A DNA stretch of 64,000 nt from an uncultured virus (IMG/VR IMGVR_UViG_3300026963_000002) (Duplodnaviria; Heunggongvirae; Uroviricota; Caudoviricetes; Thumleimavirales; Hafunaviridae): the IMG/VR virus record IMGVR_UViG_3300026963_000002; one strand, 5' to 3'. Shown here piece after piece: positions 52 to 43,007 of the stretch; the stretch's first letter is position 1; each line of letters opens with the position of its first letter. Made by a program: the position numbers and the translations under genes. A model generated the notes under the pieces. It worked only from the letters and a program-made list of their open reading frames with translations. It did not search any database and had not been told where the DNA came from.

Positions 52-123
52 GCCTGGGTAGCTTAGCGGTAAAGCGCGTCCTTGGTAAGGACGAGACCGC
101 GGGTTCAAATCCCGCCTCAGGCT
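52..123 (+). tRNA. tRNA-Thr(GGT); probable integration site (attL)
   Basis: Cloverleaf GCCTGGG/CTCAGGC acceptor, GCTT/AAGC D stem, CGTCC-TTGGTAA-GGACG anticodon arm, GCGGG-TTCAAAT-CCCGC T arm; immediately upstream of an integrase. Confidence 0.95.
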
Positions 124-19982: not shown

Positions 19983-20062
19983 TATTGCTGTATAGGTTTC
20001 TCTGGTTTGCTCGTCAGTCGGTTCAGCTCAGGCTACGACATTGTGTTTGCGTCGTAGCGAAA

Positions 20063-20135
20063 CGCCGAAGGCAGGACTCGAACCTGCAACCTACGGAGTA
20101 ACAATCCGTCGCACTACCAGTTGTGCTACCTCGGC
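20063..20135 (-). tRNA. tRNA-Asn(GTT), virus-encoded
   Basis: GCCGAGG/CTTCGGC acceptor, GCAC/GTGC D stem, ACGGA-TTGTTAC-TCCGT, GCAGG-TTCGAGT-CCTGC. Confidence 0.93.
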
Positions 20136-20283
20136 AAGAGAAAATGAGGGGCGGGTGCTTGTCCTCACTCTATTAGAGGTGGGACTAAGACTTAAAGATG
20201 CCTATATGATTCTTGGAAGTCGTCGGGAGGGATACCCCACTCGATGAGATTAATAGCAAGTAGAGAACTCGAAGGGTCGTCGA

Positions 20284-28236: not shown

Positions 28237-28539
28237 TCTTGCTTGAGTCTAAGACTCAGAGAAGTATCTATAAGTCTTTATCGCTATTGGTCAGCTCGTC
28301 ATAGCCGGGACGACCACCTCCCGACGACGCCCCACCGTAGGGCGTTTCGCCATTACTCTTGCCAGTACCGCCGCTCGATGTTGATTACCTCCGATACATC
28401 ACGGCGGGGCTTCGTCTTTCCACGTCGACGCCAACACGCCTTCCTCCGAAGGGAGTAGAAGTAATCGTAGTCGGCTTGCTCGATCTTCTCAATATCTTCT
28501 TCCATACTACCGGGGTGACACCGCAGGATGTTCGTCGGC

Positions 28540-32953: not shown

Positions 32954-33062
32954 TCTCACTCCACGATGTAGTGGCCGTTCGGCGTCTCGTAGACAGTGCC
33001 GGGCTTCACGTAGTCGTCGTCCTCTGCCATCACTTCTTGAACCGCGATTTCCAGAATATCCA

Positions 33063-33338
33063 TTATGCGTATCCTGCTTGGTAGACCGCTTCCGCTTGCT
33101 CGAACTCCGATTCCTTCGCGTCGGTGAATACCTCGATCTCCACCACAGCACGGGGATAACCCTCGGTGTCAGCGGTGAAGTTCTCGTAGATAATCCAGCG
33201 ACCATCGAGGTCTTCTTCGAGAAGGTCTGTCGCCGCGAAAATCGCATCGAGGTCGTCGTCTTCATCCACCGCATACTCAGCGGCGAATACGTCCAAGTCC
33301 TCCTTCAGCCGGTCTATGAGGTGCTTTTCGAGACTCAT
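33063..33338 (-). CDS. Early hypothetical protein
   Basis: Acidic ORF. Confidence 0.65.
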   Translation of the reverse strand: MSLEKHLIDRLKEDLDVFAAEYAVDEDDDLDAIFAATDLLEEDLDGRWIIYENFTADTEGYPRAVVEIEVFTDAKESEFEQAEAVYQAGYA

Positions 33339-34033
33339 CCCTTGATGATTTGGAGTCCGTGGTTTGCTTCGAGGACGTGTTCCGCCGCTTCCTTCGTGGG
33401 GAAGGACTCGATAATATCGAACTGAACGCCGGTTTTTCCAACATCGAAGTACGGTTCTGTCGGGTCGATTAGGTGGTACTCGTTCATATTGTCACAATCT
33501 CAGGCTTCGCTTCGTGGTTCGGTTCCGCCGTAGGAGCCAAGCTCAGCTTGGGGCCGGTCGGTTTCCTCGAAACCATCACGGCTCCCGCCGCTGGTGGTTC
33601 GTCGTCGTCGCTCCCGCCGTCCCTCGGGTCGATCTTCAGGAGAGGGTTCGCGTTGCTCTCGTCGTCGCTTCCACTCTCGGTATCGCTCTCGGCGGATTCG
33701 TTGGGCAAGAATATCACCGCTCATAGTCTGGTTCGTAATCGAGGGCCGAGTATGCCTCATCAAGAGCTTCAGCAAGCTGGTAGCCAGCCGCCGTCTCTCG
33801 ATAATCCCGACCACAGTTCTTCAGCGCCTCACTCACTTCATCGGCAAGAGTCGCTAACGCCAGCCGGTCGATTTCTACGGCGTTGCTCATAGGTGAGCCA
33901 CCTTCTCCATCGGGTTGTTGAAGCCGTCCAGCTCGTCCATATCGAAGCCGGGTTCGTCGCGGTCGTCGTAACTTGCGTCGTCGTTCATCTCCGGGTCGTG
34001 GAAGTCGGGGTAGTAGTTGTCGTACATCGTTCT

Positions 34034-34327
34034 CTAAAGGTCACTCAGGGCCTTTTCCAGCGCCGAGTCGAACAGCGCCACAAGTTGCTCGATAGCCTGT
34101 TCCTCTCGGGGAATCGGCTCTCGCCACTCCCCGTCGATGCCGAGAATCAGGTATTCTTCCTCACTCGGGATTACGTCAATCCCTCCCCACGATTGGGGTT
34201 CCTCGTAGTACCTCGCCACCGAAGCCTTGCGGAGTCGGTAAGCGTAGTCTCCGATCTTCTTTTCGAGGTCTTCTTCGCTTAGGTCGATGCGTCGATCTGT
34301 CGTTGGTGTCTTTTCTGCTACTGCCAT
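34034..34327 (-). CDS. Early hypothetical protein
   Basis: MAVAEKTP...; preceded by GGTGACACC. Confidence 0.65.
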   Translation of the reverse strand: MAVAEKTPTTDRRIDLSEEDLEKKIGDYAYRLRKASVARYYEEPQSWGGIDVIPSEEEYLILGIDGEWREPIPREEQAIEQLVALFDSALEKALSDL

Positions 34328-34358
34328 CGGTGTCACCCGGTAGTTTTCACTACCAGAG

Positions 34359-34400
34359 GCTCCGCTACGGGGTCGAACCGTAGTTTTCGCCACTCGGAGC
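34359..34400 (-). ncRNA. Mini-tRNA element
   Basis: GCTCCG-AGTGGCGAAAA-CTACGG-TTCGACC-CCGTAG-CGGAGC. Confidence 0.7.
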
Positions 34401-34613
34401 AAAGGGTTAGAGTTGCTTACTTGAGTCTTTAGAGCCGATTGTAACCTCGTCGATGATCGGCTCGCTTGGCTCGTTCTAAGTCACAGTACCAGCAGTTACA
34501 GTCCGGTTTCAGGGAATGTGGTCGTTTCATTTGGGGTTACTCGCATCGAGTCGCTGTCCCCCGAAAAGTTCCTCACTCTAAGAGACAACGTTGCGGTATT
34601 AAGTCTTTGCTGT

Positions 34614-34964
34614 TTACATCCAAGCGCCGGTATATGCCGCTCCCCGGCCCTCTCGAATCTTCTCCTGTCGTTCTTTGCGTCGTTGCTCCTGCTTCTGAAG
34701 GCTCTTGAGTTTCTTCCCCGTCCCTCGGTAGGTCGTGATGATCGACTCATCCCTCGGGTCGATGACTACCGTGATGAGCTGGCCGCTCCATCGAGTCTCT
34801 AAGAGAACCCGTCCTTTGCGACCGAGGTGTGCCTCACCATTCTCAATCGCTTGGTCAATCGCACTCATCGGAATCCGTCGCTCCCGCCGCCGGTTCCCTC
34901 CGTGAGAAAGAGGGTCGTATTCGTAGTTCTTTGCGTCTCGGCTGAAAGTCGGTGTCTCGTTCAT
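34614..34964 (-). CDS. DUF4258-like protein
   Basis: SHG..RRRER.I....I.QAIENG...VVID....IITTY. Confidence 0.6.
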   Translation of the reverse strand: MNETPTFSRDAKNYEYDPLSHGGNRRRERRIPMSAIDQAIENGEAHLGRKGRVLLETRWSGQLITVVIDPRDESIITTYRGTGKKLKSLQKQEQRRKERQEKIREGRGAAYTGAWM

Positions 34965-34969
34965 AGTTG

Positions 34970-35299
34970 TCACTCGCTGTCGTGGTATTCGGAGTAGCGC
35001 CGCCGGTACTTCTCGGCCTTCTTCTTCGCCTCGATCTCGTCGTCGGTCAGGCCGGAGCCTTCGTATTCCTCAGGCTCCGACGTTTTCTCGTGGTGGGGAT
35101 GAATCTCACTCGGGTCGGGAGTCCATCCCATAAACTCAGCAAGTTCCTCTCCTTCGAGCAGTTCTCCCTCGCGTCGTTCCTCAACTACCGCTCCGAAGGC
35201 TCGATGCCTCTGGTCGATCTTGAGGTCAGCGCGGTGGCTCCATTGGTTTTCTTCCTCCCGTTGGGAGGTTCGTACCGTTCCGAGCCTCGGGGCGAACAT
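34970..35299 (-). CDS. Early hypothetical protein
   Basis: Packed ORF. Confidence 0.6.
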   Translation of the reverse strand: MFAPRLGTVRTSQREEENQWSHRADLKIDQRHRAFGAVVEERREGELLEGEELAEFMGWTPDPSEIHPHHEKTSEPEEYEGSGLTDDEIEAKKKAEKYRRRYSEYHDSE

Positions 35300-35468
35300 T
35301 ACTCGCTCTCCTCACTATCCGCCGCGTTGAGCGCCGCTAACTTGTCCATCTCACGTCGATAATCCTCGTCGCTAAGGGGGTTCGTGAGACTGCCAGCGCC
35401 GCCGCTACGTCGTGGGTATCGCTCTCGTCGTTCCATAGGTGTCACTCGTGGTAGCCGTTGCTACCGAG

Positions 35469-35509
35469 GCCCTTCCGGGGAGTCGAACCCCGGTGTCGCC
35501 ACTAAGGGT
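35469..35509 (-). ncRNA. Mini-tRNA element
   Basis: ACCCTT-AGTGGCGACA-CCGGGG-TTCGACT-CCCCGG-AAGGGC. Confidence 0.65.
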
Positions 35510-35537
35510 TATTGAAGCGTCTTTGAGTCTTTGCGCC

Positions 35538-36431
35538 TTACTCGGAGTTTTCGAGCAACTGCTGAAGAAGGGCGTCCTTCTCGCGCTGGCTCATCTCACT
35601 CACGTCGGGAACCTCCGGCTCGGGAAGTTCGACGTGTTCCTCGTAGTCTTCCCAGTTGAGACTGATCTGATTCTCTACGATGTGAACCAGCAGAGCCTCG
35701 CCGTACTTGTTCCCGATACCCTTCACTTCCGTAGGGTCGAATAGTTCCTCGGGAAGATCGAGGCCGGTGTCACTCTCGCCGTCGCCGCCGCTGTTGCTCT
35801 TATCGTTCGATTCCGCCGTTTCATCGACTTCGACTTCTCCGAAGTAGTCACTTAGAAGGGTCTTGAGGCGTTCCTCGGCTTCCTCGTAAGTCGGGACACT
35901 CCCGACCTCGAAGCCTTCCGCCGCCTCTTGACGACCTTCACTTGCCACTACCGGGACAATCGGCTCCCCGTCGCTGTTGATGGGAACCATCACGGTGTCA
36001 CTTGCCTCGATGATTTCCTCCGAGAGCAGTAGCTCACGCTGGAACTCATCCGCTTCGGCAAGTGGCTTCACACCGAACCCGCCGTTTTCCTCCTTTAAGG
36101 AGTCGTACTTGCCACTAAAGGCGTTGTAGTCGTTGGCGGTGTAGTCGGTGGAAAGGTAGAACGCTCTCCCGAGAGAGCCGTCGCTATCGTTAGCCTCGCA
36201 CGGCTCGATCAGGTTCACATTCCGGGGCGCTTCACACCACTTAGCGATTTCACTCTCGCCGCCCTTCTTCACAGAATCCTCTCCGAACGCTTTGCGAACC
36301 TCGTGAGCGAGGCTCACCACGGAGTAGTCGTCCTTCTGGAGAAGGTCGTAGAGGTCACTAACAGGGTTAGCGCCGATCTTGCTCACCGTATTCTCAACGA
36401 AGTCGCCGTCGCTGTTGACTTTCACAGACAT
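35538..36431 (-). CDS. First early protein, acidic, unknown function
   Basis: MSVKVNSDG...; possible HhH (GIGNK) near C-terminus. Confidence 0.75.
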   Translation of the reverse strand: MSVKVNSDGDFVENTVSKIGANPVSDLYDLLQKDDYSVVSLAHEVRKAFGEDSVKKGGESEIAKWCEAPRNVNLIEPCEANDSDGSLGRAFYLSTDYTANDYNAFSGKYDSLKEENGGFGVKPLAEADEFQRELLLSEEIIEASDTVMVPINSDGEPIVPVVASEGRQEAAEGFEVGSVPTYEEAEERLKTLLSDYFGEVEVDETAESNDKSNSGGDGESDTGLDLPEELFDPTEVKGIGNKYGEALLVHIVENQISLNWEDYEEHVELPEPEVPDVSEMSQREKDALLQQLLENSE

Positions 36432-36489
36432 AGTTCGTTGGGTGTCACTTAGTGCTACTTTCCGAAGGGGAAGCACCAAACCCCCCATT

Positions 36490-37833
36490 CCGACTCAAGG
36501 AGAGAGATGACTCTCACTCACTCAAGTCGTGGTTGCTTAGCACGGGGCTTAGCCCCGTAAAGCCTCAATCCCCCGTCAATTCGGGGTTGGCTGTCGCTGG
36601 AACCTTTACGTCTATCCTTCCCCGTCCCTTACGGGACGGGCCGAACATACGAACGAGCGAATTAAGTGTGACACTTACCCCTCAAAGCCGATTGCTATAC
36701 GCTACGCTGTGCGATCTGCTCGCTATGCGGAGTTTCAAATCTCAAAGAGTCTTTCGCGTTAATCGCTATGAGCATTCGCTCTTGACTACTACGTACTTCT
36801 CCCTACGAACCTGTTTATGGCATAGACTTTCGTTCCATAGGCTAAGCGCCTATTGTTTTAACCGTAACCGCATCCGAAAGTGGGTGGGATTCACGTTTCC
36901 ATAGATGTATCTAATACATCTGGTTCGACAGTTTCGAGACGTTAATCGCTCGATGTGTCTATTTTCGTCACTCTTTGCCCTAAGGGACGCTCTTTGTCCG
37001 GGCCATACTCCCCCTATCACCTGAAAATACTCCCCGGAAAGCCGCTTTCCGGTTTCGGGCCTACATACCGGGACGGGGCCGCTTTCGCGGGCCGTCCCGT
37101 TCGGGCCGTACTTCAAACGTAACACCGGGAAAGGCGTTCGGGGCCGAACTATGCTACCTTTGAGGTTATCTCCGGGCGCATTCGGGGCCTTTCCTTTGTC
37201 GTATCAGGGGCCGGGCCGGATTTCTCGATCACATATCGTTTCGTCCGACCGGCCCCCTCTTTCCCGCCCCGGCCCCGTAGGGCCGGTAAATCTCCCCCGT
37301 ACTAAGACGGGCCTATGTGGTTTCGGGCCGTTTCGGGCCGTTTCCCGGTTATCTCCCCGTCTCTCGGGGAATTGTCGGTTAATCCGACGTTTCCGTACTA
37401 ACGACCTTACTAAGAATCCCGGCCCCGGCTTCCACGCCGGGGTTTCCGGCCCCTAAGGGCCGTTTCACCGTGAAAGACGGGCCGTTTCCGGCCCCGTCTC
37501 CTACATTTCGTAAGGGTCAATTCGGCCCGTAGTTCCGTCTCTCCGGTCGGCCCGAAACAGGGGCCGAAACGGGGAGATTCTACCTACTGGCCTACTTACC
37601 CGCCCCCGACCGTTCGAGGGGAGATTAGCGGTAATTCCGTTTGAAGGTGGCAACGTGCTAACGAAAACCTCCAACGGGGGGCGCATATGGCAACGCCCCC
37701 GATACCGGGACTTAAGCCGGTTTTCCGGGGTTTCCGGGCCTTTAACGCCGGGGAGTATATCCCCCGGCCCATTTCAGGGGGCCGACCGCCCCGGATAACA
37801 TCAATCCGGGGCGGGCCGCTTTCACCGAGCGAC
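36490..37833 (-). ncRNA. Candidate large structured non-coding RNA / leader
   Basis: No halophile-like ORF; many hairpins with GAAA, GTAA and TACG loops on - strand; TTATATATA box at 37857-37865. Confidence 0.6.
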
Positions 37834-38120
37834 ATATATACCAAGCATCCGGGGGGTATATATAAGTGACGGGTGTAGAACCATTATATACTATTAATCC
37901 GGTAGAGACGGGCGGTAGACGGGCCAACTGACGAATGTAGTTTCAACGACATAGTAGAAATAACCGGCAAGTATTGTAAACTGACAGGGTTTAGTAGTAG
38001 TTATACATATAAAGGTAAAAGTGTGAGAGTGTCGAACGCGGGGAATACAAGCCTCGATGCGGTAATATAGTGGGTAAAAATACCGGCAAAGAGATTTAAT
38101 AAGTAAGACGGTGAAAGTGC

Positions 38121-38610
38121 CGAAACACCGACGGACGGACGGGAGACGGCCCACAACGTACAAACAGGGGAAACGCGGGCCGGAACGCGAGAGACGGAAC
38201 GCGCGGGACGGGACGGGAGACGGACGGACATAGGAGAGACGGACGGGACGGCCCCCGTACTTGCCGAACGCGGCGTTTTCAGGGGCGGGGAGATACCGGA
38301 TAACGGCCCGTATGGACGGCCCGAGAGGGGGAGAGACGGCCCGCGCGGGGCGTGAGACGGCCCCAGTAGGCCCGAGAGACGGGACGGGACGGACGGGACG
38401 GGGCGGGCCGTGAGTGAGATCGAGAGGGACGGGCCGACCGGGACGGACGGGACGGGCCGACCGGCCCCAGTAGGGACGGGGCGGGACGGGGCGGGGGCCG
38501 ACCGGAGCCACTAACGAACAGGCAGGCACGCCGCCCGCGCGTAGGGTGGCCAACAACGCACATATCAGCAGGTACAAGCCCCAACGACCGGGCCGAGGGA
38601 CGAACAGGGA
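38121..38610 (+). repeat. Purine-skewed GGGAC/GGAC low-complexity tract
   Basis: Many GGGACG/GGACG units, very few T, direct repeat CGGCCCCAGTAGG at 38358 and 38462. Confidence 0.8.
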
Positions 38611-38794
38611 GTTAGAACATTAAGGCACATTCCGCACACGAGCTTTAGTAAGTAGCTCTCAGAATTTTCACCTCTGAGGTCAGAAAAATCGGTTTTTCTT
38701 CTTGGGTCGGGTGGCGGGGACGAGCTGGTGTGGACGGCCACTACGTGTTTCTTGGAGAGGAGTTCTCCTTTCTCGTGGGAGAACACGACTGAGA

Positions 38795-39241
38795 TTAGTC
38801 GGCGGGTGGTGAGCCTCTGGTGGACGGCCTCTCGTGTCGGATATGATCGGGGATTTCTACTTCGGTTCTCTCTGGTGTGATGTTACTCATCGAGTGGGGA
38901 GTCACCATCTCGCCTTTCTCGTGCATTTCGAGGTCGCCATACACGGCGATCTTGCCGCAGGAACAGCAGAACACCTTGTAGTCTCCGTAGTGGAAGGCGA
39001 CTCCGGTGTTATTGCATCCGTGGACGGTATCTCGGTTGGGGAGCTGGTCGAGCCAATCCGCGTCAATGCAGTCTTCCAGATAAATTGGCTCTTTCGTAGG
39101 GTCAACGCCGAGTAGGTCTGAGAGTTCGTTGATTACTGACACGGTGAGAGAACCCGGCCCTCTCGTGTCGTGCGCTCCCCGGCTAAGCAGATCATGTTCC
39201 TCATCAACCGCAACATGGTGGCTGTGTACCGGGTCAGGCAT
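38795..39241 (-). CDS. HalOD1 output-domain protein
   Basis: SV...LS...GVDP...L.D.ID.D.LD.L...VAF.Y..Y.V....G.I.V. Confidence 0.75.
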   Translation of the reverse strand: MPDPVHSHHVAVDEEHDLLSRGAHDTRGPGSLTVSVINELSDLLGVDPTKEPIYLEDCIDADWLDQLPNRDTVHGCNNTGVAFHYGDYKVFCCSCGKIAVYGDLEMHEKGEMVTPHSMSNITPERTEVEIPDHIRHERPSTRGSPPAD

Positions 39242-39387
39242 ACCTGTTTAGGAGAGAGTCGCGGTATTAAGACTTATCGCTCAAACTTCTTCTTAGTGTG
39301 CGATTCAGACGCATAGAATATCTGTGGAGAAAAAGCCTGATTATCTCCCTTTCTCGCTGACAAGTAGTATTTGAACACCCCCCTTCC

Positions 39388-39412
39388 TATATAAACCCTT
39401 TACCATTAATAG
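39388..39412 (+). promoter_or_regulatory. Putative late promoter, 25-bp exact repeat (copy at 59144-59168)
   Basis: TATATAAACCCTTTACCATTAATAG in both gaps. Confidence 0.75.
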
Positions 39413-39621
39413 GAGTGTAGGAGTGAAGCGACGACGAAGACCTCCTACCGATGGCTTTCTTCTCTGGATTCTGAGCTGGTGACTCAGATTCTTCTCTCTG
39501 GTTCTGTTTTACGTCGGTTTTGACTCAGGTACTTTCCTTTTCTCTACCTGAGTTTCTACTCTTTCTAACCCAAGTTAGAGGAAAACGACTCGATGCGGTG
39601 AATCACTTTACGTACAACACA

Positions 39622-40401
39622 ATGGCTCAGGCAGAAGTAACCGGCTACACGGTGCAGGAACTCGCGGAGTTACGCCACGAGTATCTTCAGACACCGAAGG
39701 CCGAGAAGGGGATTCCCTTCGATACTGCTTACTGCCTCACACGAATCGGGAAACAGCCCGAGGACTACGACGGGCCAACACGATATTGCAGTAACCGAGT
39801 AGCCCGCCTCGATGAGGGTGGGCACGCTCACTCGTGCCGATTTCACGGCGCGAATCAGAACGCCAACGGCAACAACGACAATCTCGAACTTCTCGCGGCA
39901 CTCAAACACGGAATGTACGCTACTGACGAACACTTAGAGGAGGTTTTCACCGAGGACGACCAGCGGCTCTACGACTTCGTAATGTCGTGGGCGGACGCTT
40001 ATGGCTGGCCGTCCAAGGAGGAAGACCCCGCTCGCCACGATCTGCTTGAGCAGGCGGCGATTGCTCGTGTTCGAGTAGCCCGGTCGTCCGAATACATCCT
40101 CGACGAGGGTGAGATGGACAGGCAGGAAGTGTACGATGAGAACGGGAACCTTCGCGTTATCACAGACGCGCACGGCCTCTCCGAAGACCTCCGCCTCAAG
40201 CAGAAGCTCATTCTGGACATTATGAAGGAACTTGGGCTGACGCCGAAAGAGGCGGCGAAGATGGACACGGACGAGAAGGCCGCCAGCGCAACGGAACAGC
40301 TCGCCGCTGTCGCGGCGGAGGCTGTTCTCGGCGGGGACAACTCTGACCGGGAGTTCGACCCCGACGACGACATATTCGAGGACGAAGATGGCGGAACTTG
40401 A
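39622..40401 (+). CDS. Putative terminase small subunit
   Basis: CRFHGA...GN...KHGMYA, upstream of TerL. Confidence 0.6.
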   Translation: MAQAEVTGYTVQELAELRHEYLQTPKAEKGIPFDTAYCLTRIGKQPEDYDGPTRYCSNRVARLDEGGHAHSCRFHGANQNANGNNDNLELLAALKHGMYATDEHLEEVFTEDDQRLYDFVMSWADAYGWPSKEEDPARHDLLEQAAIARVRVARSSEYILDEGEMDRQEVYDENGNLRVITDAHGLSEDLRLKQKLILDIMKELGLTPKEAAKMDTDEKAASATEQLAAVAAEAVLGGDNSDREFDPDDDIFEDEDGGT

Positions 40402-41309
40402 ACCATTCTCCGCTGGCTACGCGCTTGTTCGGGACGCGACCGTTCAGACGTGGAGCGAGCAGGAGGCTCACATGGACGTTGATCTGTACGACGATCTCGC
40501 CTTCTACCTTGGCGAGCCGGTAATCGGCATGGTCGGCGGGCTTCACTACAATTTCAGGCCCTCCGAGCAGGTTCTCAGCGATCAATGTGCGATTCCCCGG
40601 CATAACCGGGGGCGAAGGGTGGGCGGTTCTACCCTGCTGGTGCGACGGTGAATCAACTATGAATTGCTATAACTGCGGTTATCACGCCCCCAAAGGCGGG
40701 AATTGCTCCACCTGTGGCGTTCTTCTTGGGGATTTCCGCATCGAGGGGGCGACTCAAATCAATGGAAACGTCTGAAAACTCTAAGTTTAGTGTCTCTGAG
40801 GACGGCAAGCTCGTCCGAGAGGAGACTGAAGAAGCGAATTTCGAGGAAAACCTCACCTTCGAGGACTGAATCGTGACTGAGCCTTGCGAAAACTGCGACT
40901 GCGGCCTTTCTGAGCCGGATTTCGAGTACGATACGGTCGAATTTGGACTTTCACTCCCCCTCGCGTCGGTTCTGGACGGTCATATCCGTGGTTCTACGGA
41001 TGTTGACCCCGCTGACGTGGAGAAAATCGAAATCTGCGGCGATTCGATCACGATCACGGTTCAGTAGCGTTCTCCCCGACTCGATGCGGCGAATCTCTCT
41101 TTATGAACCCCTATGAGCCGGTGAAGGTGTCTAAATCGGAAGCATACCCCCGAACTAATACTCCGTTGGACGGCGAAGCCGTCGGATTGGAGTTTGGTGA
41201 CTCCGGCGCGGAGCCGCCTCGGTATCTCGTCGAGGATTCCCGCAACTGGTATGCGTGGATTGAGGCGCTGGACGGCGATTCTTACGTCAATTTAGACAAC
41301 ATTCGGTAG
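40388..41309 (+). CDS. Cluster of small hypothetical genes (40388-40651, 40659-40775 CxxC, 40873-41067, 41103-41309)
   Basis: Packed small ORFs between TerS and TerL. Confidence 0.5.
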
Positions 41310-41315
41310 TTTTTC

Positions 41316-43007
41316 ATGCAGGAAATAGCTGAGGAGTTCGCCTCCGAGAGCGATGCTGACGTTGACGCATTGCTTGAGAGGTGGGATGGACGGCCCGATC
41401 TTCTCGCAGAGGACATTCTCCGGGCGAAGAATCTGGAAACGGACGAAATTGAGCCGCTAACGCTCTTTCGACCGTACCAGCCCCGGATTATGCACGCCTA
41501 CTTCTACGGCGGCTCGAAGATTCTGAACATCTACAAGGGCCGTCGTATCGGCGTTTCCTACGTAATTGGGATTTGTATTCTACTTGAGGCGCTTCTCAAG
41601 CCGGATACGTTCTATCCGATTCTCTCGAAGACGAAGGGGCAGTCGAACTCGCGGATTAGCGACATTAAGACGCTAATCAAGAACGCGAAGATCGATATTG
41701 AGCTGGAGAAGGACAATCAGGACGAGATTGTTCTCTCGAACGGGTCGCGTATCAAGGCGTACACGGGCGACCCGGACTCCGCTCGTGGTGAAGACCCGCC
41801 GAAGACGGTCTTTATTGACGAGATGGCATTCCTCGAAGACCAGAGCGCCACCCTCGATGCGTACCTACCCACCATCAGTCTCGGTTCGAGTCAGATGGTT
41901 CAGGTGTCCACTCCGAAGGCGTCGAACGACGAGTTCATGCAGGCGAACGAGCGGGGGACACCGGACGGTCGCAACGACTTCGGGATTCTCGCGCTGAAAC
42001 AGCCGACGTTCAAGAACGCGGACGAGATCGAGACGGACGTTTCCCTGTTCGAGCAGGACGTGGAACCCGTCCGGGGCGACTTTGACTTGATGGCGGCGGA
42101 GACTCAGCGAGCCAGCGACCCCAACGGCTTCGCACAAGAGTATCTGTGCCGCCCTGTGAGCGACGAGTACCGCTTCTTCTCGATGCCCACCATAGAGGTC
42201 GCAATGGGGCGGGGGGCCGCTGAGGATTACTCCTACGGCCTCAGGCGGTACGAGACGACGAACACGCTGGTCATGGGAGTGGACATTGGGTTCAACTCCG
42301 ACGACACGGCGCTGGCTGTCTTCGAGCATGAAGGCCCGCGTCGGTACTGCCGGTACAAGGAGATCGTGAACGACCGCGTGCTTTCGCAGGCGGGAATCAC
42401 TCCATCGAGTCGGCAGAACCCGGCGGCGGTGGCCGAACGTATCTCTCAGGTCTATCACGCGATGGGCGTTTCCAACGTCGTGATGGACATGACGGGCGTG
42501 GGACAGGGGTTCCACGACGAGGTTCGGCGTCGTATCGGGCGGGCCTACACGGGCTTCAATTTCTCCGCGAAGGACAAGGTGGAGAAGATGATGGGCAACA
42601 TGAATTATGCCCTTCACAACGATCTCGTGTGGCTTCCCGAGGACGAACCCCTCCGTGAACAGCTCGGCGCGATTGTCAAACAGCAGAAAGAGGATTGGCA
42701 GAAGCCGAAGTTCACCGGGAAGGAACACGCCCCGGAGGGGAAGGACGACCTCGCTATGGCGACGGTTCTTGCGGCGTTCCCTCCGAACTTCAAGGCCGAC
42801 AAGTCACGAAATCTCCAACAGCGGGAGGAAGTAACCCCTCCGGTTCAGGTGGAAGAACCACAGGAACGCGACGGATGGGCGGGGTTGAAGATCAGCGGGC
42901 AGTCCTCGGGCGGTCGCGGGTATTCTCTCTCACACGGGCGCAAGGAACGCGGTTACAGCTCACGACACAAACGCCGTGCAACTGGAAGGCGGCGACGGAA
43001 GTTCTAA
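41316..43007 (+). CDS. terL: Terminase large subunit
   Basis: YQ, KGRRIGVS, ARG, FIDEMAF, STP, GVDIG, DMTGVG, DDLAMA. Confidence 0.93.
   Translation: MQEIAEEFASESDADVDALLERWDGRPDLLAEDILRAKNLETDEIEPLTLFRPYQPRIMHAYFYGGSKILNIYKGRRIGVSYVIGICILLEALLKPDTFYPILSKTKGQSNSRISDIKTLIKNAKIDIELEKDNQDEIVLSNGSRIKAYTGDPDSARGEDPPKTVFIDEMAFLEDQSATLDAYLPTISLGSSQMVQVSTPKASNDEFMQANERGTPDGRNDFGILALKQPTFKNADEIETDVSLFEQDVEPVRGDFDLMAAETQRASDPNGFAQEYLCRPVSDEYRFFSMPTIEVAMGRGAAEDYSYGLRRYETTNTLVMGVDIGFNSDDTALAVFEHEGPRRYCRYKEIVNDRVLSQAGITPSSRQNPAAVAERISQVYHAMGVSNVVMDMTGVGQGFHDEVRRRIGRAYTGFNFSAKDKVEKMMGNMNYALHNDLVWLPEDEPLREQLGAIVKQQKEDWQKPKFTGKEHAPEGKDDLAMATVLAAFPPNFKADKSRNLQQREEVTPPVQVEEPQERDGWAGLKISGQSSGGRGYSLSHGRKERGYSSRHKRRATGRRRRKF

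Follow-up and report, generated by a model that had tools for sequence, protein, structure and literature searches.

What occupies the gene-free stretch of about 1.3 kb that lies between the terminal repeat and the first early gene of HF1/HF2-like viruses of haloarchaea? The question arose from DNA of 64,000 nucleotides (nt) from an uncultured virus (IMG/VR record IMGVR_UViG_3300026963_000002), here called the window, in which positions 36490-37833 had been marked as densely structured, non-coding RNA. This first-pass annotation, made from the letters alone, suggested that an archaeal virus here encodes a giant leader or large ornate RNA that belongs to no described family, and the proposal was supported by conservation of the element in 41 phage records, by covariation, by a promoter with its 5' end and by contigs from RNA libraries. 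The element is a non-coding, multi-domain structured RNA gene of haloferacalesviruses, about 1.3-1.4 kb in length. As a giant structured RNA it represents a new class, found neither in Rfam nor in the literature searched, and it is common to all known relatives. That it is a conserved structured RNA is the part of this reading in which we place great confidence.

Distribution and coding potential

A 2.4-kb query around the element matched 41 phage records, all of them HF1/HF2-like haloarchaeal myoviruses of the genus Haloferacalesvirus. Region 36431-37900 was likewise matched in 41 of 50,697 phage records (27 with at least 80% query cover), at identities of 60-90%. The first early protein was present in the same 41 records and in no others, and the element was found in all 41 carriers. 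Thirty-one of the 41 matches ended at query positions 1405-1407, which correspond to window positions 37835-37837. Among the other matches, that of VOLN27B continued past this point, Hardygib1 is a partial genome, and the HRTV-24 clade (8 records) lost its diverged 5' part in BLAST. Identity to the window was 73-94% in the RNA and 81-92% in the first early gene; the spacer upstream of the element could be aligned over about 33 nt only, which is the promoter. A 21-nt invariant word of the element occurred at seven loci in IMG/VR, all known isolates, and at four metagenome loci, three of which were 99.7-100% identical to the window and one of which (L027) was a new variant. Neither this word nor a second invariant word was found in 185,579 prokaryotic species (one genome each). 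The element looks virus-specific.

Fifteen stop-free stretches of at least 50 codons were present, and none of them was open and in frame in more than 3 of 16 other viruses. The absence of a conserved open reading frame upheld the view of the region as gene-free, and the element reads as non-coding from its sequence. Two relatives have hypothetical proteins annotated within the RNA gene or in the region of the spacer and repeats, four in HRTV-24 (L015 1259-2864) and one in HRTV-5 (L007 2494-2829); the frames are not conserved, and these calls are probably false.

Covariation and domain architecture

Two alignments were used, one of 17 viruses (A1) and one of 18 viruses that ran from the predicted start to the ATG (A2), and consensus structures were obtained with RNAalifold. 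The consensus of A1 contained 457 pairs in 77 helices, with 93.6% of cells paired. Both sides had changed in 131 of the 457 pairs, compared with 58.3 ± 4.1 in 500 shuffles, none of which reached 131, and only 29-48 two-sided changes were counted when the partners were slid by 1-3 columns. Covariation in relatives had been named in advance as a check on the proposed RNA and was found: 134 of the 438 pairs of A2 were compensatory, against 63.3 ± 4.8 and a maximum of 80 in 200 shuffles. The signal extended to distant partners, as the 67 pairs at least 60 columns apart were 98.5% paired and 32 of them were compensatory, compared with 16.1 ± 2.1 after shuffling and 2-10 after sliding. The parts of the RNA are as follows:

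36530..37833, minus strand: RNA body of about 1.3 kb, from covariation, the fold z-score and an RNA-library contig spanning 36530-37821
37662..37833, minus strand: 5' hairpin cluster, with a terminal hairpin, an 11-base-pair (bp) stem (37814-37786), a stem at 37768-37747 and a branched stem at 37736-37662
37111..37646, minus strand: central domain, closed by a 9-bp long-range helix (37646-37638 with 37119-37111)
37058..37107, minus strand: variable hairpin with a GAAA cap (stem 37069-37099), 9 of 10 pairs compensatory
36641..37001, minus strand: 3' domain, the most sequence-conserved part, with a composite 23-bp long-range helix (37001-36977 with 36688-36641)
36621..36640, minus strand: GUAA-capped hairpin, 5 of 7 pairs compensatory
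36542..36558, minus strand: hairpin at the 3' boundary of the RNA contig, 7 pairs of which 4 are compensatory, 100% paired and folding alike in five viruses
36432..36529, minus strand: leader tail to the start codon, which adds two hairpins and has an invariant block of 27 nt that spans the AUG

The four stems of the 5' cluster had 3 compensatory pairs of 11, 6 of 12, 3 of 7 and 4 of 9, with compensatory variants in the L027 metagenome sequence (mgL027) and in VOLN27B. The helix that closes the central domain (helix 2) was 100% paired with 4 of its 9 pairs compensatory, and the helix nested within it (helix 3; 37625-37620 with 37295-37290) was 98% paired with 5 of 6 pairs compensatory. A sub-domain at 37194-37128 lies within the central domain, and its helices 5 and 6 were 100% paired, with 5 of 8 and 4 of 4 pairs compensatory. 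The hairpin at 37069-37099 occurred with at least four different stem sequences among the relatives, all capped by GAAA or GNRA-like loops. In the 3' domain, the closing helices 7-9 were 100% paired, four pairs were compensatory and the G·U pairs were invariant. This domain contains invariant blocks of 21-25 nt, and a covariance model (R1) was built from its inner 143 nt. The stem of the GUAA-capped hairpin varied between CCCGTCCC/GGGACGGG, CCCACGGC/GCCGTGGG (in HCTV-7) and CCCCGG/CCGGGG.

Six hairpins had been singled out from the letters of the window; all six lie where they had been placed and fold as described, and their pairing is kept across the relatives. The minus-strand loops include GUAA (36621-36640), GAAA (37069-37099), UACG (37271-37284) and GAAA (37480-37493). 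Two long-range pairings read from the same letters fared less well. The complementary words are present, but the pairings are not kept in the relatives, where TTTCGGGCCG pairs with 37548-37557 at 74-75% and ATCTCCCC with 37571-37578 at 53-58%. The conserved partner of 37290-37295 is 37620-37625, not 37571-37578. The word CCUAAG of the classic 11-nt tetraloop receptor occurred 0 times in the element, and K-turns and pseudoknots were not the subject of a systematic search.

Strand, promoter and folding energy

The promoter and the start are placed as follows:

37857..37865, minus strand: TATA box TTATATATA, TTTATAT in most relatives, aligned in 14 viruses
37833..37835, minus strand: predicted transcription start, where conservation between viruses begins

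In every clade, that of HRTV-24 included, a conserved (A)TGTCGC was preceded at about 30 nt by a TTTATAT box. The box at 37857-37865 had been taken to predict a start near 37833, and the G of the conserved motif falls exactly at 37833. The motif ATGTCG(C/T) was recovered from 20 of 21 sequences, at a distance of 1360-1500 nt upstream of the ATG, and the partial Hardygib1 genome is without the 5' part. The first hairpin begins at G37833 and has a compensatory variant, GUCGC...GCGGC being replaced by GUCGU...ACGGC in VOLN27B. In HF2, the AT box of mapped promoters starts near -26 to -30, the same spacing as that of the element promoter (PMC8707807).

The loops and the base composition also point to the minus strand. 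Among 118 tetraloop cells of the consensus, 47 were of the GNRA or UNCG type if read in the minus sense and none if read in the plus sense. GAAA was counted 26 times on the minus strand and 8 times on the plus strand, and 41% of unpaired positions were A. Cells enclosed by pairs predicted on both strands comprised 83 G·U and 35 A·C, and the fold energy of the alignment was -876.6 for the minus strand and -828.9 for the plus strand. The invariant G·U pairs of a helix that is 100% paired point the same way. Folding of region 36530-37835 against 10 dinucleotide shuffles per strand gave z-scores of -7.6 (minus strand) and -9.5 (plus strand), while four gene controls of equal length gave values between -0.07 and -2.0. 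Since G·U cells only slightly outnumber A·C cells in the plain set of pairs common to both strands (89 and 70) and the plus-strand z-score is the lower of the two, the strand call rests mainly on loops, composition and promoter. The element is very probably transcribed from the minus strand, starting from the TATA promoter at 37857-37865.

Presence in RNA libraries

Three public RNA-Seq metatranscriptomes, which belong to three coded studies and possibly to one campaign, were used, and their contigs were mapped to window positions 33000-42000. The element is present in these RNA libraries: all six contigs that mapped to the 9-kb stretch fall within it. One of them, a 1292-nt contig with a depth of 19, spans 36530-37821. 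It ends 12 nt inside the predicted start on one side and 12 nt beyond the covarying hairpin 36558-36542 on the other, which is a weak hint that 37821 and 36530 are near the true ends of the RNA. The flanking early genes, the spacer, the terminal repeat and the late-side genes yielded no contigs; uncovered parts prove nothing and were not used as evidence. A further run (X18), whose status as RNA is a guess, gave scattered low-depth pieces of a relative and was uninformative.

Comparison with known RNA families

An Rfam 15 scan of 35000-40000 by E-value gave nothing on the element up to E=1 and two chance-level hits outside it, and a scan of the whole window at the gathering scores found two tRNAs and one type II hammerhead, all outside the element. 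The covariance models of GOLLD, ROOL, OLE, HEARO and raiA in Rfam 15 did not match the element, nor did any Rfam model of a self-cleaving ribozyme or of a group I or group II intron core. The scan thus bore out the suggestion that no described family matches. In the portions of the literature accessible to us, comparative-genomics papers included (PMC7230728, PMC8651126, PMC8727067), no description of the element was found; a Northern band over the region may exist in older work.

The element nonetheless has the properties of a large ornate RNA: a length above 500 nt, a multi-junction structure backed by covariation and no coding capacity. Giant ornate RNAs are among the least understood products of microbial genomes. 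To our knowledge, those described so far (GOLLD, ROOL and OLE) come only from bacteria and their phages. GOLLD exceeds 800 nt and ROOL measures about 580-660 nt (10.1101/2024.12.08.627333, PMC5737381); according to the first of these sources, GOLLD is conserved in its 3' part and variable in its 5' part, and ROOL can be highly abundant (10.1101/2024.12.08.627333). Like these RNAs, the element is virus-encoded and non-coding, is hundreds of nt long, has many junctions with covariation and has no assigned role, and it shares with GOLLD the contrast between a conserved 3' region and a more variable 5' one. It differs from both in showing no match of sequence or structure, in its archaeal-viral origin and in its greater length of about 1300-1400 nt. 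GOLLD and ROOL often lie by tRNA islands, whereas the element is more than 16 kb from the only tRNAs of the window and at the head of the early operon.

Two RNA- or promoter-related features of the same virus group invite comparison. One is the hammerhead found in the scan:

28286..28352, minus strand: hammerhead ribozyme of type II (RF02276, 49.4 bits) that precedes the early helicase operon and is the HHphage already known from HF1/HF2

This ribozyme sits in the leader of an early polycistronic transcript of HF1/HF2 (PMC3088659). It resembles the element in that both are structured RNAs at the leader of early transcripts in this virus group, and differs from it in size (about 67 nt), in belonging to a known ribozyme class and in its locus. 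The HHphage hammerhead shows that HF1/HF2 viruses process early transcripts through RNA structure. The other is the set of intergenic repeats of HF2, which share the virus group and the promoter spacing with the element and differ from it as DNA promoter modules of 29-58 bp rather than 1.3 kb of structured sequence (PMC8707807).

Genomic setting and the first early gene

The match of the 2.4-kb query reached the terminus of the linear genomes of the relatives, with nt 1-2001 of HF2 covered on the reverse strand, and the part of the window to the right of about 38650 matched the opposite end of the same genomes, from about position 38. By sequence comparison, the window is an HF1/HF2-like halovirus genome (Haloferacalesvirus) that has been circularly joined. 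The HF2 annotation has a repeat at nt 1-306, a putative nick site at 305-310 and a first gene, HrrHF2_005, that starts at 1970; the gap between the terminal repeat with its nick site and HrrHF2_005 carries no annotation. The element (36490-37833) is this unannotated gap, flanked by the direct terminal repeat on one side and by the first early gene on the other. Its surroundings are:

35538..36431, minus strand: first early gene, 297 amino acids (aa), homologue of HF2 HrrHF2_005, found in 41 records
37836..38110, no strand assigned: AT-rich spacer (guanine plus cytosine 41.5%) upstream of the promoter, poorly conserved, from composition and alignment
38111..38649, plus strand: terminal repeat region, GACGG units 26 times on the plus strand and 0 times on the minus strand
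about 38649/38650, no strand: genome-end junction, to which the ends of linear relatives map

The GACGG-type units form tandem arrays at 38111-38650. The spacer at 37836-38110, which can hardly be aligned between viruses, contains TATA-like boxes on each strand and could hold a divergent promoter or an unwinding element.

The start of the first early gene is placed differently among records, giving a protein of 297-302 aa in the curated HF2 and Serpecor1 records (36431) and of 318 aa elsewhere (36488). VOLN27B and the HRTV-24 clade, where another codon stands out of frame in place of the upstream ATG, favour the start at 36431. The first early protein matched no Pfam family, the PHROG to which it belongs (19037) has no assigned function, and the neighbouring proteins gave no functional clue.

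Several observations connect the RNA with this gene. The last 130 nt before the AUG formed the same three hairpins in two sequence variants, one of them with a compensatory change from GGUGCU/AGCACU to GCGGCU/AGCCGU. Hairpins with compensatory variants reach to about 12 nt before the AUG, and the 27-nt block across the AUG is invariant. No AT-rich TATA-like box was seen between the RNA body and the first early gene. The HF2 transcript F1 was detected by reverse transcription polymerase chain reaction (RT-PCR) with a 5' primer at nt 1855-1868 (PMC8707807, Table S4). This primer lies 115 nt upstream of the ATG of the first gene, inside the 3' end of the element. As far as the same partial source goes, its primer list has nothing upstream of 1712, it reports no start site at the left end and no start site or transcript mapped within nt 307-1854, and left-end transcripts of HF2 are not explained by the intergenic-repeat promoters (PMC8707807). 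The simplest reading is one transcription unit that consists of the promoter, the 1.3 kb structured body, the 100-nt structured tail and the early genes.

Model and alternative explanations

The observations would fit the following model. Host RNA polymerase would read the minus strand from the TATA promoter beside the terminal repeat, starting at about 37833-37835, so that the RNA would be the first sequence of the early transcription unit. The transcript would fold into the 5' hairpin cluster, the central domain (37646-37111) and the 3' domain (37001-36641), the domains being closed by long-range helices. Read-through into the first early gene, across a further stretch of hairpins about 100 nt long, would make the RNA formally a giant leader, and the 1.3 kb body (about 37833-36530) would be released or terminated after the hairpin 36558-36542. 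The stable RNA would then accumulate and, by analogy with what is suspected for GOLLD and ROOL, might act in trans, serving some partner of host or viral origin as scaffold or decoy. Taken as one whole, a structured RNA at the head of the early transcript that is released, stable and trans-acting is the best explanation, and we consider it somewhat probable; for the single step from a purely cis-acting leader to a stable trans-acting product, the chances appear evenly balanced.

Several results weigh against this model or against parts of it. The first-pass annotation had expected the element to fold better than shuffles, and this was so by a wide margin for the whole element and not clearly so for its parts, as 200-nt windows gave z-scores of only -1.4 to -3.7, which some coding windows also reached. 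The plus strand had a lower z-score than the minus strand (-9.5 and -7.6), and the plain set of pairs predicted on both strands was nearly balanced, with 89 G·U and 70 A·C. The shuffle controls for covariation (such as 63.3 ± 4.8 against the 134 pairs observed) overstate significance because the 18 sequences are related and mosaic. The minimum-energy long-range model differed in part between A1 and A2, and those of its long-range parts that are without covariation are predictions not to be trusted. The contigs give no strand, true ends or level. No U-tract terminator was present at the proposed 3' end, and neither a partner nor a motif of catalytic or tertiary type was identified. As for the RT-PCR link to the gene, a leader that acts purely in cis would explain it just as well.

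Such a leader is the rival with most in its favour. It would control the stability, the translation or the read-through of the first early genes, for instance in response to salt or temperature, and the 1.3 kb species would be a nuclease-resistant remnant. The element stands beside the first early gene in 41 of 41 records, no TATA-like box was seen between the two, covarying hairpins and the 27-nt invariant block reach the start codon, and, in HF2, RT-PCR joins nt 1855 to the gene. Yet 1.3 kb with nested long-range domains far exceeds the needs of known cis-regulators, 200-570 nt separate the near-invariant 3' domain from the start codon, and the RNA-library contig ends before the gene, which is a weak hint. 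Haloarchaeal mRNAs, moreover, are mostly leaderless or have short leaders. We regard a purely cis-acting role as rather unlikely.

The covariation of hairpins alone cannot separate RNA from single-stranded DNA, and folding is as good on the plus strand as on the minus strand. Both would fit a DNA-level element with no function as RNA, such as an origin of replication, a signal for packaging or single-stranded-DNA hairpins by the terminal repeat. The position of the element, which adjoins the terminal repeat, the annotated nick site of HF2 and the AT-rich spacer, fits such a DNA element. An archaeal replication origin would have inverted recognition repeats on either side of an AT-rich unwinding element; an AT-rich spacer is present at 37836-38110, and the GACGG arrays flank it on one side and occur on one strand only. 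GACGG is not enriched in the element, where it was counted 4 and 6 times on the two strands compared with 26 and 0 in the repeat arrays. The DNA explanation is further opposed by the contigs of three RNA libraries on the element, by conservation that starts exactly at the promoter-spaced point and by GNRA loops and A-rich unpaired bases on one strand only. Helices whose sides are 350-600 nt apart covary, and duplex DNA has no use for such pairing; the stems, moreover, stay paired through changes of sequence, which leaves no fixed word for a protein to bind. A DNA-level element is therefore very improbable. The size, the multi-domain fold and the viral origin would also suit one of the known large RNA classes, of which the element would be a strongly diverged member; candidates are group II introns, GOLLD, ROOL and packaging RNAs such as the pRNA of phi29, which is likewise encoded at a genome end. 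GOLLD shares the conserved 3' and variable 5' parts (10.1101/2024.12.08.627333). Against this stand the Rfam 15 scans, with nothing over the element up to E=1 and gathering-score hits elsewhere only, and the facts that the element interrupts no gene and has no tRNA nearby. We consider this origin improbable in the extreme, and the structured RNA released from the head of the early transcript is retained as the favoured reading.

Other genera of the Hafunaviridae and further features of the window

A search with the large terminase retrieved 12 further records, which represent the three other genera of the Hafunaviridae. An nhmmer profile of the RNA gave a best E-value of 1.8 on four genome-end loci of 4 kb each (L028-L031), and covariance model R1, from the 143-nt core, gave no hit up to E=10 on six such loci (L028-L033). 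At the same end of their genomes, the Mincapviruses (HRTV-7, HSTV-2, HRTV-11 and HCTV-6) carry about 1.5 kb of DNA that is poor in genes and unrelated in sequence:

L028 1170-2667 (HRTV-7), likewise in L029, L032 and L033: Mincapvirus gene-poor stretch, fold z-score -5.7 (10 shuffles)

This stretch may be an analogous structured RNA; its four copies are 93-99% identical, too similar to reveal covariation.

The two tRNA genes of the window lie far from the element:

52-123, plus strand: tRNA-Thr(GGU) gene
20062-20136, minus strand: tRNA-Asn(GUU) gene

The attP of this virus group is a partial tRNA-Thr, according to a comparative study (PMC7230728). In two long metagenome records, L024 (193 kb) and L026 (161 kb), the element was 100% and 99.8% identical to that of the window; the records exceed twice the length of a 76-kb genome, which suggests a concatemeric or repeated assembly.

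Implications for haloviruses and ornate RNAs

The finding corrects the annotation of these genomes, both where hypothetical proteins have been called inside the RNA and in the left 2 kb of HF1/HF2, which is now blank. By analogy, the element may be for archaeal viruses what the giant ornate RNAs are for bacteriophages. It is larger than GOLLD, ROOL and OLE, its promoter is clear, and its place at the very start of the infection programme is fixed. If the boldest form of the model were true, which we put forward only tentatively, the archaeal virosphere would have in this element its first class of giant ornate RNA, and no larger structured non-coding RNA encoded by a virus would be known from prokaryotes. 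It would be an abundant, self-organising machine for assembly, decoy or catalysis that is made in the first minutes of infection and has an unrelated counterpart at the same genome end in the sister genus Mincapvirus. The viruses that carry it have been cultivable for decades (HF1, HF2 and the HRTV and HCTV isolates), and their hosts include genetically tractable haloarchaea. The function of an ornate RNA is thus directly testable in viruses of the HF1/HF2 type.

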